Shown here piece by piece: positions 5,844-61,757 of a stretch of 64,000 nucleotides of DNA. Source of the DNA: Candidatus Magasanikiibacteriota bacterium (GTDB lineage: Bacteria; Patescibacteriota; Patescibacteriia; Magasanikbacterales; UBA922); the NCBI GenBank assembly GCA_018652595.1, contig JABIBU010000016.1, forward strand, positions 26,911-90,910, given 5' to 3'. The position numbers and the translations under genes were made by a program. The first letter of the stretch is position 1; every line of letters begins with the position of its first letter. The notes under the pieces were generated by a model, which ran no database searches, was not told where the DNA came from, and saw only the letters and a list, made by a program, of their open reading frames with translations.

Positions 5844-6000
5844 AGAAAATGTGTCATTGCGAGGAGTGAGTATACACAACGCGGCAATCTCATACATTAA
5901 TAGCGATACTAATGTATCAAAAACTGAGATTGCCACGCAAAAAATTTTCTTTCAGAAATTTACTGCTCGCAATGACAGTGTTTTTATAATTTGGATCACC

Positions 6001-7140
6001 CTACATCCACTTACCAATCACTTTCATCTGACTATCCCACTTAAAATTTGCCCGAACCCTGATCCTTGCATTCTCAGATAATCTCTTGGCATATTCATCA
6101 TTATCAAACATTTCTGCAATTGATTTTATTACACTCTTGTCGCCCTTATATATATCGACTAGAACACCAGTCTGTGTGTGAAGCACTGCTTCTTCTACAC
6201 CACCACTCTTACCTGCCACAACAGGCAATCCAGCTGCCGCTGCCTCCAGATAGACCAAACCTAACCCCTCTTCTCTACCTTCATCTGGATGAGTAAGCAA
6301 TACAAACAAATCTGCCAAATGATAAAACTTGTTCAATTCTTCGTGTGGTACCTCACCAATAAACCTAACTACACTCTGCAAAGAATTCTTTTGTATTTCT
6401 TTTAACAAAAAATCTTTCTTCGGACCATCACCAACCACAAACCAAACCAAATTTGGAACTTCTTTCAATATCTCTGGCAACATTCTAATAAGATGAGTGT
6501 AACCCTTACCCTCATCCAGCCTGGCAACAGTTAGCATTACTTTTTTCCCTTCCAAGGCATACTGCGCCTTTAGACTATTATTTTCTTCCTCGCTCATTTC
6601 ATCATAAAAAATCTGCTCTGGACAAGGATACAGCACACTTGCCTTACTCTCATACTCGGGCAATACTTTTAATAGTCTGTGTTTCAAATTTTTGCTGTTA
6701 AATACAATCTGCTCAGAATCTTCCAAAACTTTTTTTAACATTCCTCGTTTCCACCTAGATCTGGTAGCATACTCTATATCTGTACCATGTGAAAAAACCA
6801 GATAAGGAATTTTTTTGAACTTTTTTATAAGCCTGGCTACATGCCCAACTGGCAATACGTGATGCAAATAAATTATCTCGATTTTTTCTTTTTTTATAAT
6901 TCGTAACACCTGAAAAAATAACTTGATCCATCTAGGCCAAATAAAGACCGGGAAAAGCATGTTTTTTCTAATTGTCTTAAATTTTTCCCCCTTATCAAAT
7001 TCTTTTGCATTCTTGTAGCCCGGTGCCAATACGACAACATCAGCTGGATCTAGCTCGCCAGCAAATTGACGAACATAACTAGCTATTCCACCAATCTTTG
7101 GTGGATACTCAAATGTAATAATTAATTTTTTCATAAACAA
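6001..7140 (-). CDS. glycosyltransferase family 4 (GT-B)
   Basis: C-terminal EGLGLVYLEAAAAGLPVVAGKSGG motif of GT1/GT4 enzymes. Confidence 0.8.
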   Translation of the reverse strand: MFMKKLIITFEYPPKIGGIASYVRQFAGELDPADVVVLAPGYKNAKEFDKGEKFKTIRKNMLFPVFIWPRWIKLFFQVLRIIKKEKIEIIYLHHVLPVGHVARLIKKFKKIPYLVFSHGTDIEYATRSRWKRGMLKKVLEDSEQIVFNSKNLKHRLLKVLPEYESKASVLYPCPEQIFYDEMSEEENNSLKAQYALEGKKVMLTVARLDEGKGYTHLIRMLPEILKEVPNLVWFVVGDGPKKDFLLKEIQKNSLQSVVRFIGEVPHEELNKFYHLADLFVLLTHPDEGREEGLGLVYLEAAAAGLPVVAGKSGGVEEAVLHTQTGVLVDIYKGDKSVIKSIAEMFDNDEYAKRLSENARIRVRANFKWDSQMKVIGKWM

Positions 7141-30004: not shown

Positions 30005-30856
30005 CTATTTTTTAAACAAATCATTCACCCAAGCCAAACCAACACCAAAAGGTCGCAGTATCGCAATCCAAATCCATTTATACATCGGTTCCCATTTTTT
30101 GAAATAGGTCAGCATAGATCGAGTGAATTGTTTTTGTTTCCACAATGTTTTTCTTTTTTTGAAACTCTGTCCGACATAGTCTATCGCAGATATCACTGGT
30201 GTATACATGACTTTATAATTCAAACGTTTTGCTTCACGACATATGTCGACATCCTCATACCAAATAAAATATCTTGGATCAAATGCCCATCCAAGCTTGT
30301 CGACAAATTCACGACGCATGAGCATGAATGATCCACGCACACTATCCACCTCTTGTTCTTTTTCAATATCTAAATCTTTCATGTGATATGAATTCAAGGT
30401 ATTTGGAAATATATGTGGAATCTTCAAAATAAGTGCGAGCTGCTCCCAGAGTTTTGGGAATCGACGAGGTGAGGCATCCCAATTGAATTTTCCATATTGA
30501 TCCAAAAGTTTTGGACATACTATTCCCACATCCTTATTTTTTTTCATCCAATCTAAAATACCATCTAAACTTCCTTCTTCAACCATCATATCTCCATTGA
30601 GAAATAACAAAAATTCACCTTGTGCAATTTTCAATCCTTGATTATTTCCCGCACCAAATCCTATGTTTTCTTTATTTTCTATCAATTTCACATGTGGAAA
30701 TTGATTCTTCACAATCTCAATGGTCTGATCACTCGATCCACTATCTACGATGATCTCCTCACACGTCACATCTTTGCATCCAGCAAAAACAGACGCGATC
30801 TGACGCGCAATTTCTTTTTCATTATTCCAAGTGACAGTGATTATACTTAGATCCAT
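30005..30856 (-). CDS. glycosyltransferase family 2
   Basis: LSIITVTWNNEKEI…IVDSGSSD GT-A signature. Start taken at M21 of the ORF (MDLSIITV); the longer ORF would overlap the GxxExxY gene. Confidence 0.7.
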   Translation of the reverse strand: MDLSIITVTWNNEKEIARQIASVFAGCKDVTCEEIIVDSGSSDQTIEIVKNQFPHVKLIENKENIGFGAGNNQGLKIAQGEFLLFLNGDMMVEEGSLDGILDWMKKNKDVGIVCPKLLDQYGKFNWDASPRRFPKLWEQLALILKIPHIFPNTLNSYHMKDLDIEKEQEVDSVRGSFMLMRREFVDKLGWAFDPRYFIWYEDVDICREAKRLNYKVMYTPVISAIDYVGQSFKKRKTLWKQKQFTRSMLTYFKKWEPMYKWIWIAILRPFGVGLAWVNDLFKK

Positions 30857-31309
30857 ACACTGATTACGTTGATTAATTTGGATTACACTGATTTTTATAA
30901 GTCTTGTAATTTCCAAAACGTTTTACTTCTAGACTGGGATTACCAAAATTTATAAGCAAACCAACTTCCAGACCACTAGCTTTTAAATAAGAAACTGTCT
31001 GGGTTTTAAATATTTTCGATACTTCCCCACTTACAGCTTTCAATTCAACAACAACCTTACTGTTTACCAACAAATCAACCCTAAAAACTCCTATTATTTT
31101 ATTGTTATATACTACATCAAACTTTTTTTCTGTTTCGACAGCATATTCTTGTTCAGTTAAATCATCTAACAATGCTGTATGATAAATTTGTTCCTTAAAA
31201 CCTGGGCCCAACCCCCTATGAATCTTCATTGCAATACCAATTATTTCACGTGTTAGTTTGCTCCCTTTTTACATATTCAGTGTAATCTATTATAATCTGT
31301 CAATCAGTG
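30857..31309 (-). mobile_element. inverted-repeat-flanked mini-cassette carrying the GxxExxY gene
   Basis: cactgatt-N16-attacactg (30857-30889) versus cagtgtaat-N14-caatcagtg (31278-31309). Terminal 8-9 nt are perfect reverse complements and the interior is AT-rich and similar. The right IR overlaps the stop of the PGI/PMI gene; the left IR encodes the last 7 codons. Confidence 0.5.
30873..31229 (-). CDS. GxxExxY family protein (PD-(D/E)xK-like), N-terminally short
   Basis: LGPGFKEQIYHTAL (GxxExxY), VDLLVN…VELKAV, LLINFG motifs. The conserved N-terminal segment (…TREIIGIA) is encoded in frame upstream of the ATG after a TAA, with no canonical start. Confidence 0.7.
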   Translation of the reverse strand: MKIHRGLGPGFKEQIYHTALLDDLTEQEYAVETEKKFDVVYNNKIIGVFRVDLLVNSKVVVELKAVSGEVSKIFKTQTVSYLKASGLEVGLLINFGNPSLEVKRFGNYKTYKNQCNPN

Positions 31310-32368
31310 TTTCATTTCTTTCTTAAAAAAATCTACATAAGGAATATCTGTTGGATCAATATTTTTTAGCAGTGCGCTGTAATAGCTAATATAACTTCCC
31401 AAAACTAAAGCTTCACAAGCCTGAAGTAATGCATCTTTTTCTTTCATATTATAAATTTCGTTTTGAATTCCATTTTTGTTTAGAACTTTTTTGGTCACAT
31501 CATAGCGCTTGCCGACCCTCTTGTGATACAAATCTGATTTTAACATTATAAATAACAAACTGCGCTTATTGCTAGCTGGATTCATCATCCCTTCCATTAG
31601 ATGATGATTGAGCTCTGGAATTGCAAAATATGCTGCCATACGCTTGGCATTCTCATTCATTTGGTTTGCCGCTATATGAGCATTGCCGAGTAAATGCTCT
31701 GACGCAACATACAGAATACTCTTGCTAATTGTTTTTCTGGCTAATTGCTTTGCAATATTTTCCTTTTCTGGAGTAAGTACACCAAAAAGACCATCATAGT
31801 ACGCAAGTGTCTTAATTACCTCTTTTACTTTTTTCTGAGAAAGTTTTAGTAATCCAACTCTAGAAAATAAAATCAACTGACCCATAATTGAATAGCCCAA
31901 ACCCATACGAGGTGAACCACAAGGATTATTCTCTGTGGTAAAAATTAAGGCAGGCAAATTATTTCTCTTAGCAAAAGCCTTTAACTTTCCACCTGCAGAA
32001 ATAACAACAATCTTGGCTTTTTTTATTTTTGCTTTTTTGACAGCTTCGACAACCTCTTCTGTTCCACCGGAATAGCTAGAAGCAATTACCAGAGTCTTAC
32101 TATTAGCAAATTTTGGAACATCATATCCATTTATAATGTCAACTGGCAACTTTAATTCACTAGAAAATAAATTTCTAATCAAATCTGCGCCTATAGCAGA
32201 CCCACCCATTCCCAAAACTACTACGTTTTGAATATTTTTATAATTTGTAGGAATTTTCAAATCCTGAGCAGTATTATAAATTTGCTCTACTTGTTTTGAA
32301 AGTAATTGCAAACTTCCAAGCATATTTTGTGAATCTAGTTTTTTTATTTTTGTTATATTGTCTAGCAT
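31304..32368 (-). CDS. bifunctional phosphoglucose/phosphomannose isomerase (SIS domain)
   Basis: SIS-domain VLGMGGSAIGADL and a second SIS half. Archaeal-type PGI/PMI architecture. Confidence 0.7.
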   Translation of the reverse strand: MLDNITKIKKLDSQNMLGSLQLLSKQVEQIYNTAQDLKIPTNYKNIQNVVVLGMGGSAIGADLIRNLFSSELKLPVDIINGYDVPKFANSKTLVIASSYSGGTEEVVEAVKKAKIKKAKIVVISAGGKLKAFAKRNNLPALIFTTENNPCGSPRMGLGYSIMGQLILFSRVGLLKLSQKKVKEVIKTLAYYDGLFGVLTPEKENIAKQLARKTISKSILYVASEHLLGNAHIAANQMNENAKRMAAYFAIPELNHHLMEGMMNPASNKRSLLFIMLKSDLYHKRVGKRYDVTKKVLNKNGIQNEIYNMKEKDALLQACEALVLGSYISYYSALLKNIDPTDIPYVDFFKKEMKH

Positions 32369-33712: not shown

Positions 33713-34582
33713 CTAACAGACCAAAACATCATCACTACTTTCACCAGCCTTCTTCGCCTCAGCATACTTACTCATAGTATCTCGCATGGCATCATGTACT
33801 TCGCGCATTTTTATACCGACTTTTTCCAAATTTTCTGATGCTAAAAAGTTATTTGATCTATGTTTTTTGGCCAACCCCTGATCAACTAGATCATCCTCTG
33901 TTATCCACTCGCAAGTAAAATCTGGATCAACTAGTTCTTGGTACAAATCTATAATCTCTCTATGCTTCAAAGTTCCTGGATTGGTCACATGAAAAATTCC
34001 TTCAGATTTTTTCTCCATTAACTGATAAAAGACCTCTACCATATCGTCAATAATTGTCACACTATTTTCCACATCTATAACCTTTGGAAAAGATGACAGC
34101 TTGTCTATCATGTTACTTGGTGATGGAATATAGTCAATTGGCATTCTTATTCTTCCTATTCCAATATTTGGCATTGTTTGTAGAGCAAGATCAGCTGCGT
34201 ATTTTGCTTTGGAATAGACTGCTTTTGGATTGGCAAAATCATTCTCACGCCATTTTTTATCTTCATGTGATGAATCACCATAAAAAACACAGCCAGATCC
34301 AATATGAAGTAGATAGATGTTCCTTTCCTGACAGGCTTGGGCAATCATAATTGGTAAAACCGTATTACCAAGAATTGTTTCCATCTGATGATCCTCACAC
34401 CAATCTACATTTGGTTTACCACGAACCCCAGCGGCATTTAGAACTGCATCGGGATTGTGCTCATCCAGCAATTCCAAAACATCTTGTTTTGTCTCAACAC
34501 GTTTTTCTGCCAAGACTGAATCCTGCCATGCTTTGTGACAGCGTTCACCAATATATCCTTTACCTATTATTAATATTTTCAT
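33713..34582 (-). CDS. NAD-dependent epimerase/reductase, dTDP-4-dehydrorhamnose reductase (RmlD)-like
   Basis: Short Rossmann N-terminus and YSKAK catalytic motif. 4-nt overlap with the upstream rmlB. Confidence 0.6.
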   Translation of the reverse strand: MKILIIGKGYIGERCHKAWQDSVLAEKRVETKQDVLELLDEHNPDAVLNAAGVRGKPNVDWCEDHQMETILGNTVLPIMIAQACQERNIYLLHIGSGCVFYGDSSHEDKKWRENDFANPKAVYSKAKYAADLALQTMPNIGIGRIRMPIDYIPSPSNMIDKLSSFPKVIDVENSVTIIDDMVEVFYQLMEKKSEGIFHVTNPGTLKHREIIDLYQELVDPDFTCEWITEDDLVDQGLAKKHRSNNFLASENLEKVGIKMREVHDAMRDTMSKYAEAKKAGESSDDVLVC

Positions 34583-35580
34583 ATATTATATTGCCTCTTA
34601 TAGTATTCCTTATATTCCCCACTCTTACAATTCTTTACCCATTCATAATTATCCTTATACCATTTTACCATTTCTTTTAGTCCGTCTTCAAAGCTAATTT
34701 CTGGCTCCCAACCCAATTCATTTTTAATCTTACTAAAATCAATTGCATACCTTTTATCATGCCCGGCTCTATCCTCAACATGCTCTATCATCTCCTCGCC
34801 CCTGCCAACGGCTTGTAAAATTTTGAAAGTTAAATCTTTGTTAGTCAATTCATTATTTCCTCCAAGACAGTATGTCTCACCAATTTTTCCTTTGTGAATT
34901 ATGAGATCTACTCCACGATTGTGATCATCTACATGGATCCAATCACGAATGTTCATTCCATCACCATACAAAGGTACTTTTTTATTTTCAAATAAGTTGG
35001 TAATAAAAAGTGGAATAACTTTTTCTGGAAACATACAAGGTCCATAATTGTTTGAGCAATTGGAGATAGTTATTGGAAGATTGTGTGTATGATAGTATGC
35101 ACGGACCAAATGATCTGATGCGGCTTTGGAAGCTGAATATGGGCTACGCGGATCATAAGGAGTCTCTTCATTGAATCCAGGATCATCTGGTCCAAGCGAA
35201 CCAAAAACTTCATCAGTAGAAACATGGTGAAAACGAGTTCCAAATTCTTTTGCTGAGTCCAACAATACTTGTGTGCCAATCACATTAGTCACCACGAAGG
35301 CTTGTGAATCTAAAATTGATCTATCTACATGCGACTCAGCGGCAAAGTGAACTATAATATCTACATCCTTTACCAAATTATTTACTAAATCACGATCACA
35401 AATATCACCTTTTACAAATTTATAATTTGGATTATCTTCAAAATCTTTTAGATTTTCCAAATTTCCTGCGTATGTCAAAGCGTCCAGATTAGTAATTTTA
35501 TAATCTGGATATTTGTTTATTATATAGCGAATAAAGTTGGAGCCGATGAACCCAGCACCACCTGTTATGAGTAAGCGCAT
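34579..35580 (-). CDS. rmlB: dTDP-glucose 4,6-dehydratase
   Basis: ITGGAGFIGSNF Rossmann motif, YSASK catalytic triad region, typical RmlB length. Confidence 0.9.
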   Translation of the reverse strand: MRLLITGGAGFIGSNFIRYIINKYPDYKITNLDALTYAGNLENLKDFEDNPNYKFVKGDICDRDLVNNLVKDVDIIVHFAAESHVDRSILDSQAFVVTNVIGTQVLLDSAKEFGTRFHHVSTDEVFGSLGPDDPGFNEETPYDPRSPYSASKAASDHLVRAYYHTHNLPITISNCSNNYGPCMFPEKVIPLFITNLFENKKVPLYGDGMNIRDWIHVDDHNRGVDLIIHKGKIGETYCLGGNNELTNKDLTFKILQAVGRGEEMIEHVEDRAGHDKRYAIDFSKIKNELGWEPEISFEDGLKEMVKWYKDNYEWVKNCKSGEYKEYYKRQYNI

Positions 35581-35628
35581 AAAATTTTATTTAATATTTT
35601 TTTATAAACCACGACAGGTGGTGCTGGG
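35551..35628 (-). promoter_or_regulatory. 15-bp perfect inverted repeat bracketing the rmlB ribosome-binding site and start codon
   Basis: cccagcaccacctgt (35551-35565, codons 6-10 of rmlB) and acaggtggtgctggg (35614-35628, 5' UTR) are perfect reverse complements separated by 48 nt that contain the SD and ATG (35580). Confidence 0.45.
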
Positions 35629-35670
35629 TGAATCCTGCCCCGCCGGTAACTAGTAAATGCATAATAGTTT

Positions 35671-36108
35671 ATCCTGAGCGTAGCGAAGGATCTCTCCTAC
35701 CTCAGATTTTATTTAATAATTAAAATAATGGTCTAATTTTTGACATTGTAACCACATTGTCGTATAAATCATTCCAATCTTTATTGTTCTTTTCAATAAG
35801 TTCTATTTTTCTTTTTCTAAGCCACCCCTTCAATTCTCTTTCTCTATTCATTGCTTCATGTTTAAAATGAAAATGTTCCCAATATATCAATCTATTAACT
35901 TTGTATTTCTTTGTGAAAGCATTATCAAATGTGCCTTTTTTATGTTGGTTAATTCTTTTTACTAGACAATTTGTAAAACCAATATAAATTACTTTGCTTA
36001 TGCTAGCAGTCACGTATACATAATAATTTTTCCTCCTAGGTATCATATTAAAATGTAAGTATTTATTCTTCGAAAGATCCTTCCTCGGTCTTGAGACCTC
36101 CTCAGGAT
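35671..36108 (-). mobile_element. inverted-repeat-flanked mini-cassette carrying the GIY-YIG nuclease gene
   Basis: atcctgagcgtagcgaaggatct (35671-35693) versus agatccttc-N17-ctcaggat (36075-36108). Termini agatccttc / ctcaggat are perfect reverse complements. The right IR overlaps the NUDIX stop codon. Confidence 0.5.
35720..36046 (-). CDS. GIY-YIG nuclease family protein (small, homing-endonuclease-like)
   Basis: YYVYV…IYIGFT…R…H…G…E GIY-YIG catalytic motifs in a protein of about 100 aa. Start taken at the internal M (MIPRRKNYYVY); the longer ORF overlaps the NUDIX gene. Confidence 0.7.
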   Translation of the reverse strand: MIPRRKNYYVYVTASISKVIYIGFTNCLVKRINQHKKGTFDNAFTKKYKVNRLIYWEHFHFKHEAMNRERELKGWLRKRKIELIEKNNKDWNDLYDNVVTMSKIRPLF

Positions 36109-36653
36109 TGTGAGTCCTTATGTAAAAAATTATGATGCACCATGGCCCAAGCTGCCAAAGTCTGCCCATCCCAAATTTCATTCTTTCTAATCATCGTATC
36201 AATCTCATCTGGCCTACGATACATTACTTCTATCTCCTCTGTGTCATCTAGCTGCTGTGCCTCTTGTTCTGTCACATAAGCCAAAAATACATGACACATA
36301 TCCTTTACCAATCCATTCAATCCTTCAAATTCACCTATCTTGATATATTCGTCTGCAACATAACCAGTCTCTTCCAAAAGCTCTCGCTTGGCCGCATCTA
36401 ACACACCCTGACCTTCAAATATTCCACCGCAAGGAAATTCTATGCTTTGTTTTTCGCGCAGATAACGCTGCTGCAAAACAAGAACAATCCTACCGTCATC
36501 CAACACAGGCACAACCATGGCATTGCCAGGTGTCTCACCATAATAGTAATCCCCTTCTTCACCATTAGGCTTTTCGTATTTATCATGTTTATAAATCCAC
36601 CAAGGATTCTTATGAATTGTTTCCTCAGATATTTTTTTTAAATGTTTTGGCAT
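36102..36653 (-). CDS. NUDIX hydrolase
   Basis: Nudix box GGIFEGQGVLDAAKRELLEETGY. Start at M29 avoids overlap with the HIT gene. Confidence 0.75.
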   Translation of the reverse strand: MPKHLKKISEETIHKNPWWIYKHDKYEKPNGEEGDYYYGETPGNAMVVPVLDDGRIVLVLQQRYLREKQSIEFPCGGIFEGQGVLDAAKRELLEETGYVADEYIKIGEFEGLNGLVKDMCHVFLAYVTEQEAQQLDDTEEIEVMYRRPDEIDTMIRKNEIWDGQTLAAWAMVHHNFLHKDSQS

Positions 36654-53326: not shown

Positions 53327-53412
53327 TAAAAAAACTCCCATAAAAATAGTCGCTATAATAAAAATGTGCTATAATATAATTGACAAGCTAATTAATTCTT
53401 AATTTATATCTT

Positions 53413-53760
53413 ATGTCATTCGTAAGAATCCTTATGGGTATTTTGATGGTAGCATCTATCGTCACAACTTTGGTCATGTGGATCATAGCCCTGATACAAG
53501 CAGCCAGCCGTGAAGATCTAAAAAACAACAAGGTATTGTGGATAATCCTAATTATCTTCGTATCGCCAATTGGACCAATTATTTATTTCTTCGTAGAGGG
53601 TAGGAAAAAATATGGCTGGATAACTCTAGTCGCCGCACTAGCCACACCTATCGTCTTATCAGTATATGCTATTCAAGCATTTACAAGTGATCAATTGCAG
53701 TCCGCTATTCAAGCTGATTCACAAAATGTGATTGAGGTTCAACTACCGACAGAAAATTAA
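53413..53760 (+). CDS. PLD-nuclease N-terminal (PLDc_N) domain small membrane protein
   Basis: Two TM helices with the PLDc_N-like motif KVLWIILIIFVSPIGPIIYFFVEGRKK. Confidence 0.55.
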   Translation: MSFVRILMGILMVASIVTTLVMWIIALIQAASREDLKNNKVLWIILIIFVSPIGPIIYFFVEGRKKYGWITLVAALATPIVLSVYAIQAFTSDQLQSAIQADSQNVIEVQLPTEN

Positions 53761-57746: not shown

Positions 57747-57775
57747 TTGACAAAACCTTTGTTTTGTGCTATAAT
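57747..57775 (+). promoter_or_regulatory. perfect-consensus sigma70 promoter driving the candidate ncRNA
   Basis: TTGACA (57747-57752), 17-nt spacer, TATAAT (57770-57775). Confidence 0.65.
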
Positions 57776-57782
57776 GCTTTGT

Positions 57783-58186
57783 TAAGTTAAATAAGTCAAG
57801 ATCCTGTGTGTATATAATAATTTGTCTATACACAGGGCCTTGGGTGGCCAGACGACGTGCACCCAGTACGGGCAGGCAGTAAAAAATGGTTCACAATCGC
57901 GAAAATGCGAGGAAAAACCAGATCAATCATGATCCTGGAGAACCATCTAATCTGCAGCCACGCAGGGCAGTTCACCAGAACCGTCGACCAGCAATCTGGC
58001 CACCCAAGCCCCACTCAATTCCGCCCTTTTTAGGAGCAAGTAGCAGGCGTGCACCTCCCAAGCCATCTCGGCAATCCATGGGAACCCTTTCGCACAACAA
58101 AAGCCTGCTACTTGCTCCATGAAACTCTTTGACTATTTAAGTAATTAAAGAGTAATAAAAAACCAGCGATAACGCTGGTTTTTTAA
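57783..58186 (+). ncRNA. candidate structured ncRNA with consensus promoter and terminator, class undetermined
   Basis: Perfect TTGACA-17-TATAAT at 57747-57775; intrinsic terminator at 58162-58184. 12-bp 5' hairpin (57803-57837). Long-range helices 57835-57852 :: 57995-58012 (17 bp, one mismatch) and 58033-58048 :: 58103-58118 (16 bp perfect). The only ORFs are Pro/Arg-rich low-complexity. Confidence 0.55.
58155..58186. terminator. bidirectional terminator (ncRNA candidate / beta-CASP RNase)
   Basis: aaaaa-accagcg-ataa-cgctggt-tttttaatt. Confidence 0.7.
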
Positions 58187-61346: not shown

Positions 61347-61757
61347 AGTAGAAAGGTAAAAGTATAAAGTAGAAAGATTATGTCTTTAGAAAAATTTGAA
61401 GATATAATTGCCTGGCAAAAAGCTGGCAAACTTACTTTAAGTGTCTATAAAACCTTTAAATGTTGTAAGGACTATAATTTTAAAGATCAAATACAAAGAG
61501 CTACAGTATCAATAATGAATAATATTGCCGAAGGGTTTGAAAGGAAATCAAATAAAGAGTTTATAAGATTTTTGTACATTGCAAAAGGATCTTGCGGAGA
61601 AGTTCGATCAATGCTCTATTTGGCAATTAAATTAAATTATATAAAAGAAGAAGATTTTCAAGAGTTTTATAATAAATCAGTAGAAATTTCCAAGATACTT
61701 TCCGGATTAATTAAATCACTCAAATAACTTTCTACTTTTACCTTTATACTTTCTACT
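61347..61757 (+). mobile_element. inverted-repeat-flanked mini-cassette carrying the four-helix-bundle gene
   Basis: IR-L agtagaaaggtaaaagtataaagtagaaag (61347-61376) and IR-R ctttctacttttacctttatactttctact (61728-61757); terminal 9-mers perfect and duplicated. The cassette fills exactly the corA-murJ intergenic gap. Confidence 0.55.
61380..61727 (+). CDS. four-helix-bundle protein (23S rRNA intervening-sequence protein family, TIGR02436-like)
   Basis: AWQKA…VY…RATVSIMNNIAEGFERKS…EFIRFLYIAKGSCGE matches the family consensus. Flanked by 30-nt inverted repeats. Confidence 0.75.
   Translation: MSLEKFEDIIAWQKAGKLTLSVYKTFKCCKDYNFKDQIQRATVSIMNNIAEGFERKSNKEFIRFLYIAKGSCGEVRSMLYLAIKLNYIKEEDFQEFYNKSVEISKILSGLIKSLK

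Follow-up and report, generated by a model that had tools for sequence, protein, structure and literature searches.

The stretch of DNA analysed here, referred to as the window, comprises 64 kb (64,000 nucleotides) of contig JABIBU010000016.1 from a Candidatus Magasanikiibacteriota bacterium, and all positions given are those of the window. At the junction between the genes for a NUDIX hydrolase and for RmlB (dTDP-glucose 4,6-dehydratase) lies a 438-bp cassette (35671-36108) that carries a small GIY-YIG nuclease gene and extends from hairpin end to hairpin end. All genes around it are on the minus strand, in the order HIT-family protein (37095-36679), NUDIX hydrolase, the upstream host gene (36102-36650), the 108-amino-acid (aa) GIY-YIG protein, whose gene we call ssn-like (35720-36046), rmlB, the downstream host gene (34579-35580; TIGR01181, E 3.9e-143), and rmlD. 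The original prediction, made from the letters of the sequence alone, had described a GIY-YIG protein of about 100 aa in a cassette inserted between NUDIX and rmlB, with inverted repeats of complementary termini at both ends, the right one overlapping the NUDIX stop codon, and each of these points was borne out by the results described below.

The upstream arm (36072-36108) reads forward on the coding (minus) strand, where positions 36108-36075 consist of ATCCTGAG, a 17-nt middle, GAGGTCTCAAGACCGAG, and GAAGGATCT; the last codons of NUDIX run into this arm, and its stop codon (TGA, 36104-36102) falls within it. The downstream arm (35671-35696, plus strand) is inverted relative to the gene, and on the coding strand (35693-35671) it is made up of AGATCCTTC, a 6-nt middle (GCTACG) and CTCAGGAT. 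Across the 64 kb, AGATCCTTC occurs exactly twice, at 35685-35693 (minus) and 36075-36083 (plus), with 0.59 occurrences expected by chance, while CTCAGGAT occurs three times (1.27 expected), at 35671-35678 (minus), at 36101-36108 (plus) and at a third, unrelated site. Each arm is a hairpin on its own, of the type ATCCT-GA...GA-AGGAT followed by C. The upstream hairpin (36108-36077, minus), ATCCT-GA-G(GAGGTCTCAAGACCGA)G-GA-AGGAT, combines a 5-bp outer stem with an additional inner stem-loop, GGTC-TCAA-GACC, with inner GGUC/GACC pairing; C and a CTTTC flank (36076-36072) come after it. The downstream hairpin, ATCCTGAGCGTAGCGAAGGAT (35671-35691, plus), has a 5-bp stem, a tandem G.A/A.G, 2 bp and a GTA triloop, and C and a CTCTC flank come next. 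The long-range inverted repeat therefore exists because two copies of an oriented hairpin stand in opposite orientation. Since the loops of the two arms differ in length (17 vs 6 nt), a gapped alignment of the flanks gave a z-score of only 1.3 for the window, and the arms were therefore analysed as separate hairpins.

A small GIY-YIG nuclease whose gene stands between hairpin repeats is known from the Ssn system, for which an SRM-ssn-SRM architecture has been described (Chenal et al. 2025, Nat Commun; PMC11893778). In Neisseria meningitidis, the 94-aa GIY-YIG protein SsnA (NMV_0044/NMB0047, CDD cd10448) binds the NTS hairpin repeat, CGTCATTCCCGCGMAVGCGGGAATCYRG, exclusively as single-stranded DNA (ssDNA) and cuts a few nucleotides upstream of it (PMC11893778). 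The same study found hairpins termed Ssn-related motifs (SRMs) on both sides of ssn genes in many phyla, proved that four homologues cut their own repeat, and observed neither activity on double-stranded DNA (dsDNA) nor RNA binding for the Ssn proteins tested (PMC11893778). The C immediately 3' of the palindrome was the most important base for binding, and the GTC immediately 5' of it governed cleavage (PMC11893778). Homology to the SsnA clade was taken there as E < 1e-10 to SsnA, and the NTS-ssnA-NTS unit was likened to an insertion sequence, its mobility being put forward as a hypothesis only (PMC11893778). The Neisseria enzyme lowers the integration of transforming DNA that carries the repeat, and the terms 'Patescibacteria' and 'candidate phyla' are absent from the main text of the paper (PMC11893778).

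The window protein matches the Pfam GIY-YIG family (E 4.9e-14) over residues 7-80, and Pfam found no second domain in it, the related T5orf172 match falling below its cut-off; NCBIfam gave no match. Alignment places it in the Ssn clade by way of SRM-flanked homologues. These homologues, from Wolbachia (L077; 47% identity, E 2e-27) and from a bacterium of the candidate phyla radiation, CPR (L074; 48%, E 3e-27), are both flanked by canonical NTS-type hairpins, and the downstream hairpin of L074 is the exact NTS consensus. UPF0213/YhbQ proteins likewise consist of a stand-alone GIY-YIG domain of about 100 aa, but their structures 1ZG2 and 1YWL match the window protein weakly (E 6.6e-5 and 2.4e-3), against E of about 1e-27 for the SRM-flanked homologues. 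In an alignment of 17 sequences, residues Y11, Y21, R31, H35 and E69 of the window protein are invariant in the family; in the Wolbachia homologue, the residues aligned with Y11, Y21 and E69 are Y7, Y18 and E65, and we take the three window residues as counterparts of the catalytic Y6, Y17 and E64 of SsnA, the N. meningitidis numbering being deduced from spacing. The window protein belongs to a CPR subclade (window, L004, L007, L011-L014 and L053) of proteins that are 57-82% identical and have in common a C-terminal extension of about 10 aa (..VVxMSKIRPLF). Between the window gene and its L004 orthologue, first and second codon positions are about 90% identical and third positions 71.6%, which indicates that the gene is under purifying selection.

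The protein has numerous homologues, and flanking hairpins were compared at 80 of their loci (67 non-redundant), taken from genomes that each represent a species. Many phyla are covered, among them CPR groups, Bradyrhizobium, Wolbachia, Longimicrobium, Ignavibacteria and Planctomycetes. In about half of the loci the flanks pair as inverted repeats (z 5-38 against shuffled controls), and their arms follow the consensus tGTC-AT(T/C)CC...GG(A/G)AT-C(C/T)ag, as in TGTCATTCCCGCGAAGGCGGGAATCCAG. When a motif consisting of GTC, a hairpin of at least 6 bp and C was scored, it was found upstream of the gene in forward orientation in 33/67 loci and reversed in 4/67, and downstream reversed in 26/67 and forward in 10/67, with counts of only 1-3 in control stretches 800-1000 nt away. 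Because of this orientation bias, the predicted cleavage side points outward at both ends. For a test of covariation, repeats were picked by their unpaired flanks only (GTCAT-N16-ATC); their 8-bp stem was paired in 98.3% of cases and five of its pairs were changed on both sides (25 double-change cells), a result that none of 500 shuffles equalled.

The window arms represent a GA-type subtype, in which a 5-bp stem, AT(C/T)C(C/T), is followed by GA...GA, the complement of the stem and C. Within 200 nt of ssn genes there are 30 such hairpins in 27.5 kb, vs 13 in 294 kb of other sequence from the same loci, an enrichment of about 25-fold. The core of the downstream arm is identical at 21/21 nt to a hairpin beside a betaproteobacterial ssn homologue (L036) and one loop base away from a hairpin at L045, and upstream of the gene in L007 there is a two-tier hairpin like the upstream arm of the window, with GGTCTCAAGACC as the inner loop. 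GA-type hairpins of non-CPR genomes retain the tGTC 5' flank, while members of the CPR subclade have a variable, A/T-rich 5' flank, CTTTC as 3' flank and an outer stem that changes in a compensatory manner (ATCCT/AGGAT, ATCTC/GAGAT, ATTCC/GGAAT, ATCCC/GGGAT, ATCTT/AAGAT). As judged from these sequences, the window arms are a divergent SRM variant typical of the CPR subclade, and the inverted repeats are very probably recognition sites of the encoded nuclease.

An accidental inverted repeat, or a resident gene that simply stands between intrinsic terminators of the usual kind, would be compatible with perfect matches of such modest length (9 and 8 nt). Nevertheless, the word counts given above exceed the expectation from shuffles, no terminator-like site was found in 35400-36400, and the same hairpins stand beside homologues across phyla, so that we attach a negligible probability to this explanation. 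It is refuted by the orientation bias, the stem covariation, the lack of terminator-like sites and the GA-type enrichment taken together. The original prediction had named two observations that would speak against a mobile element, an open reading frame (ORF) conserved throughout the lineage without inverted repeats and inverted repeats limited to this locus as a terminator hairpin; instead, the repeats are widespread, occurring at dozens of loci, in many phyla and once more in the window (5852-5977), and, as set out below, the ORF is missing from the junction in close relatives.

In our reading the cassette is a divergent member of the already known Ssn/SRM system and no new kind of homing element, and we consider it likely that it constitutes an Ssn/SRM module, with a small GIY-YIG nuclease gene between two opposed copies of its cognate hairpin repeat. 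It has in common with that system a single-domain GIY-YIG protein of about 100 aa, a gene between two inverted copies of an oriented hairpin, a C after the palindrome in both arms (...AGGAT-C), a hairpin core also found in proteobacterial SRMs, and a family that spans many phyla. It differs in the tandem G.A pairs, the CTTTC 3' flank and the inner stem-loop of one arm, in the C-terminal extension of the protein, and in its host, a CPR bacterium.

Several observations weigh against this assignment. The published SRM pattern, HGTCWYN(0-2)YYVSBRHN(0-5)WNVSBRGN(0-2)RNCYNB, has no match in the window, nor, when up to two substitutions are allowed, in 35601-36200; as transcribed, it is too narrow, many clear SRMs at other loci escaping it as well. 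A covariance model of canonical 20-nt SRMs misses both arms, as well as the pair at 5852-5977. The bases 5' of the hairpins are CAC(A) in the upstream and TTT in the downstream arm rather than GTC, and they are unconserved in the CPR subclade; by analogy with the published role of the GTC flank, the window arms could be sites for binding only. Finally, the window holds one other SRM-type pair only, that at 5852-5977, with no large expansion of the repeat of the kind seen in Neisseria. The best match of the canonical SRM model in the window (E 0.044) is a mini-hairpin, TATGTCATTCGTAAGAATCCTTA (53412-53434), with SRM-like flanks and a 4-bp stem, which overlaps the start codon of an ORF (53413-53760) and is probably due to chance. 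A looser pattern (AT-stem...AT-C hairpin) was uninformative, with 57 matches in the window vs 30 in shuffles, reflecting A/T-rich noise.

To see whether the cassette is an insertion, we collected NUDIX orthologues and read the junction contexts in genomes or scanned them in metagenomes. The junction is occupied in the window (NUDIX aa identity 100%) and in L004/L100, whose NUDIX protein is 88% and whose ssn protein is 82% identical to that of the window. It is empty in L099 (NUDIX 94% identical), L101 (90%; 9-nt spacer), L092 (84%; 47 nt) and L095 (78%; the two genes overlap by ATGA). The whole 438-bp unit is a discrete insertion into the NUDIX-rmlB junction: the extra DNA relative to L099 and L101 is exactly 35671-36108, hairpin to hairpin, and no target-site duplication was seen when the window was aligned with these two sequences. 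The NUDIX protein ends in ...HKE* at empty sites vs ...HKDSQS* in the window.

Over the flanking genes, the occupied L004 is no nearer to the window than the empty L099 and L101, the nucleotide identities to the window for L004, L099 and L101 being 80.0%, 84.9% and 83.6% in NUDIX, 77.4%, 80.9% and 82.9% in rmlB, and 77.8%, 77.0% and 80.5% in the HIT gene. At third codon positions, the window and L004 are 71.6% identical in ssn vs 55-57% in the three flanking genes. This difference is suggestive of a cassette younger than its flanks, which might reflect lateral spread or repeated precise loss, although the gene is very A/T-rich, and chance identity is inflated accordingly. The protein identical to that of the window was read in 23 contigs, 21 of which have the neighbouring genes of the window locus (L001); the other two, L002 and L003, are cut off by a contig boundary and agree in the genes of their remaining side, and no other context was found. 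Homologues that are 68-70% identical to the window protein sit at other junctions. The genome of L092 carries one between a methyltransferase gene and dciA (L011), and the contig of L097 carries one between glycosyltransferase (GT2) and NTP-transferase genes (L007).

The original prediction had proposed homing into gene junctions, with the inverted repeats as recognition or repair-template ends. According to this explanation, a free-standing GIY-YIG homing endonuclease would cut the empty double-stranded NUDIX-rmlB junction, and repair of the double-strand break would copy the cassette into it. The presence/absence polymorphism at one junction among related genomes is what such an enzyme would produce, lateral spread into the same site would agree with the elevated third-position identity of the window and L004 cassettes, and hairpin elements occupy this junction in several lineages. 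The phage enzymes I-TevI and T4 Seg share the GIY-YIG fold, insertion between genes and presence/absence polymorphism, but they have a C-terminal DNA-binding domain, are about twice the size and cut dsDNA at empty sites. The 108-aa protein consists of the catalytic domain only, without a DNA-binding domain, and it matched no PHROG family at E <= 0.01, including the phage homing-endonuclease families. Its tested relatives are inactive on dsDNA (PMC11893778). Furthermore, close homologues lie at unrelated junctions with no target sequence in common, inverted hairpins are unnecessary for homing and yet are the conserved feature of the family, and the junction elements of other lineages differ in repeat type, which fits a permissive site better than a specific one. 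Homing of the classical kind, with cleavage of an empty double-stranded site, is thus not supported, and we regard it as highly improbable. What survives of the earlier proposal is the role of the repeats as very probable recognition sites, with the difference that the predicted target is the repeat itself in single-stranded form, as for the tested Ssn relatives, and not the empty site (PMC11893778).

The same junction also holds repeat pairs without a gene. In L097, SRM-like arms of the form ATCCT..AAGGATCTTTC and GAAAGATCTTTT..CTCAAGAT are separated by about 50 nt, and L131 and L160 have gene-less arm pairs of the canonical type. In the cassette of L004 (2880-3470) the arms are nested as [A forward][B reverse]-ssn-[B forward][A reverse], with a perfect 32-nt outer inverted repeat. 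The gene-less doublet of L097 (3538-3683), [A forward][B reverse], resembles the left doublet of L004 and could have arisen either by gene loss or by independent insertion. In the window, a possible degenerate third arm, ATCTGAGGTAGGAGAGAT (35690-35707, minus), is fused to the downstream arm; it stands where the orthologous L004 cassette has its inner forward arm, ATCTTGAG...GAAAGATCT, and is a low-confidence assignment by positional analogy only.

Other repeat types are found at the junction as well: gene-less GATT-rich arms in L102 (1462-1575), L103 (602-742) and L114 (1763-1801) resemble those of the GxxExxY cassette described below, and gene-less repeats across L102, L103, L114 and L134 (1215-1296) include an AAAGATCAAAGAC palindrome (z 8-10). 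Judging from these sequences, the NUDIX-rmlB junction would seem to be a hotspot shared by several repeat families. In more distant relatives, the spacers of 380-1400 nt contain extra NUDIX-like genes, a phosphoglucose-isomerase-like gene and a gene for a 130-aa protein, as judged by eye from translations, and the spacers of 380-530 nt showed no flanking inverted repeats (z -0.5 to 1.2). The empty, occupied and gene-less states would fit elements that are gained, lost or decaying at permissive operon junctions.

Elsewhere in the window, a gene-less canonical SRM-type pair with a TGTCAT flank (5852-5977) separates a GT4 gene (6001-7140, minus) from a GT2 gene (5142 to ~5846, minus). Its arms, forward TGTCATTGCGAG...GCAATCTC and reversed GAGATTGC...CTCGCAATGACA, are about 40 nt apart, and the arms at the L160 junction are similar. 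Beside the cassette, the 5' end of rmlB carries an insertion of about 80 nt (35581-35660, minus), also present in L099 (846-938). The ancestral start, ATGCATTTACTAGTTACCGGCGGGGCAGGATTCA, is kept as a stub of 11 codons; after it come 15 bp in which the GGAGF codons are repeated in inverted orientation, then a new ATG with a regenerated N-terminus. In the RNA fold (-44.5 kcal/mol, z -5.5) the stub pairs with rmlB codons 6-12. L099 has this insertion but L101 and L004 lack it, so that it occurs independently of the ssn cassette.

An autonomous hairpin transposon comparable to IS200/IS605 or to the RAYT/REP (REPIN) elements, with a GIY-YIG enzyme, ssDNA intermediates and gene-less pairs as its non-autonomous derivatives, would account for the exact hairpin-to-hairpin boundaries without target-site duplication, for the gene-less SRM-type pairs at the junction in L097, L131 and L160 and at 5852-5977, and for the differing junctions of close homologues. 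Those elements likewise combine a small nuclease gene with flanking hairpin repeats, which are recognised as ssDNA, as predicted for the cassette, have gene-less repeat pairs elsewhere and insert without duplicating the target, and the analogy with insertion sequences was raised by the authors of the Ssn study themselves (PMC11893778). They encode a Y1 HUH transposase, however, whereas the only ORF of the cassette is a GIY-YIG hydrolase; GIY-YIG nucleases hydrolyse DNA, and no covalent strand-transfer intermediates are known for them, which counts against a transposon of this kind. Moreover, the end hairpins of IS200/IS605 share a strand, while those of the cassette are inverted, with predicted cuts on opposite strands, the identical protein was found at one site only in all 23 contigs read, and no excision product or second copy was seen. 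We therefore regard an autonomous transposon as rather unlikely.

A further explanation places the function of the arms in RNA. The two arms would pair in the operon transcript and form a stem enclosing the ORF, as in the RNase III-processed stems of 23S rRNA intervening sequences, and would thereby process or insulate the cassette mRNA, the nuclease being irrelevant to the repeats. The arms can indeed pair over a long range (8+9 bp), the cassette is co-directional with its neighbours in all four gene-called contexts (L001/window, L004, L007 and L011), one change in L011 is G-U-compatible, and the family of the four-helix-bundle cassette in the window (see below) is known from rRNA intervening sequences, which would favour an RNA element. 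On the other hand, the asymmetric flanks of the hairpins (5' GTC or A/T-rich, 3' C/CTTTC) are conserved on one DNA strand at one end and on the other strand at the other end, and such strand-symmetric flanks fit a DNA-binding protein and not one RNA strand. As RNA, the individual arms do not fold with unusual stability (z 0.06 and -1.5), and tested Ssn proteins did not bind RNA (PMC11893778), so that an RNA-level element appears improbable. Rfam, at gathering thresholds, found no family in the whole window, and a tRNA scan of the window found none.

Returning to the Ssn/SRM module, a mechanism can be outlined from what is known of the tested family members. By analogy with these, the protein would bind a hairpin only when its strand is single-stranded, as could occur in replication, repair or DNA uptake, and would nick a few nucleotides 5' of the hairpin. 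Given the orientation of the arms, both nicks would lie at the outer edge of the cassette, the left one on the coding strand and the right one on the opposite strand. The protein may then cut these variant arms, and the cassette may spread or persist through ssDNA processes, candidate routes being recombination of transforming DNA or a route like that of hairpin transposons. Single-strand-specific, hairpin-directed cleavage is carried over here from the literature on the homologues, and a role in the integration of transforming DNA, as in Neisseria, is conceivable on the same grounds.

Under this reading, the Ssn/hairpin system would be present in the reduced genomes of the CPR in a minimal form, one gene and two hairpins. 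The variant hairpin, with no GTC flank, a CTTTC flank and tandem G.A pairs, co-occurs with a protein subclade and could widen the range of programmable ssDNA cutters. Insertion polymorphism is compared directly here, whereas mobility was only hypothesised for the known system (PMC11893778), and the empty, occupied and gene-less states of the junction are the type of evidence needed for testing that idea.

The original prediction had also counted the cassette as the third of a family flanked by inverted repeats, and had seen in the GIY-YIG nuclease a plausible means of mobility for all of them. The other two cassettes are real and have inverted arms of their own, but arm sequences are unrelated among the three, so that the GIY-YIG nuclease is not an obvious cause of mobility for the whole family. 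One of them (30855-31310), between phosphoglucose isomerase and GT2 genes, carries a GxxExxY/PDDEXK_3 gene (30873-31229, minus) and is flanked by inverted arrays of CAC(A/C/T)GATT octamers; the stop codon of its upstream gene lies within the first arm, as in the NUDIX case and as the earlier note had said. Homologues with inverted arrays of CACNGATT-like octamers were found in another Magasanikiibacteriota genome (L180), in Mucilaginibacter (L184) and in WOR-3 (L185), with z 4-13, and the flank signal was weaker at L182 (z 2.7). The other cassette (61350-61757), between corA and murJ, carries a gene for a four-helix-bundle protein of family TIGR02436 ('23S rRNA IVS protein'; 61380-61727, plus) and has the inverted repeat AGTAGAAAGGTAAAAGTATAAAGTAGAAAG on both sides; on plasmids of Nostoc, Riemerella and Calothrix, homologues (L187-L189) stand between inverted purine-rich repeat arrays (z 9-17). 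PADLOC gave no match for the proteins of any of the three cassettes. A scan of viral contigs found one locus for the GxxExxY protein and none for the four-helix-bundle protein, and a full-text literature search found no paper on GxxExxY or four-helix-bundle genes flanked by inverted repeats.

Two unrelated families of small genes with the same inverted-repeat geometry in several phyla hint at a wider class of junction cassettes. In its broadest form, which we advance tentatively and with more doubt than confidence, such a proposal would hold that SRM-ssn-SRM units are mobile, hairpin-bounded mini-elements that are driven by a GIY-YIG single-strand nuclease and insert at operon junctions, without target duplication and at times overlapping the upstream stop codon, that they leave gene-less pairs behind, and that they are one of at least three parallel cassette types, the GxxExxY/PD-(D/E)XK and four-helix-bundle types being the others, which have gone undescribed as such and are found at junctions not only in CPR but also in Bacteroidota, cyanobacteria and other phyla.

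Apart from these cassettes, a GC-rich non-coding stretch of about 400 nt (57749-58186), for which Rfam gave no credible family even at E <= 1, is a candidate structured RNA without an Rfam class. It begins with a consensus promoter, TTGACA-17-TATAAT (57749-57777), and contains a 14-bp long-range inverted repeat (57839-57852 and 57995-58008) and a terminator-like hairpin at about 58160-58186.

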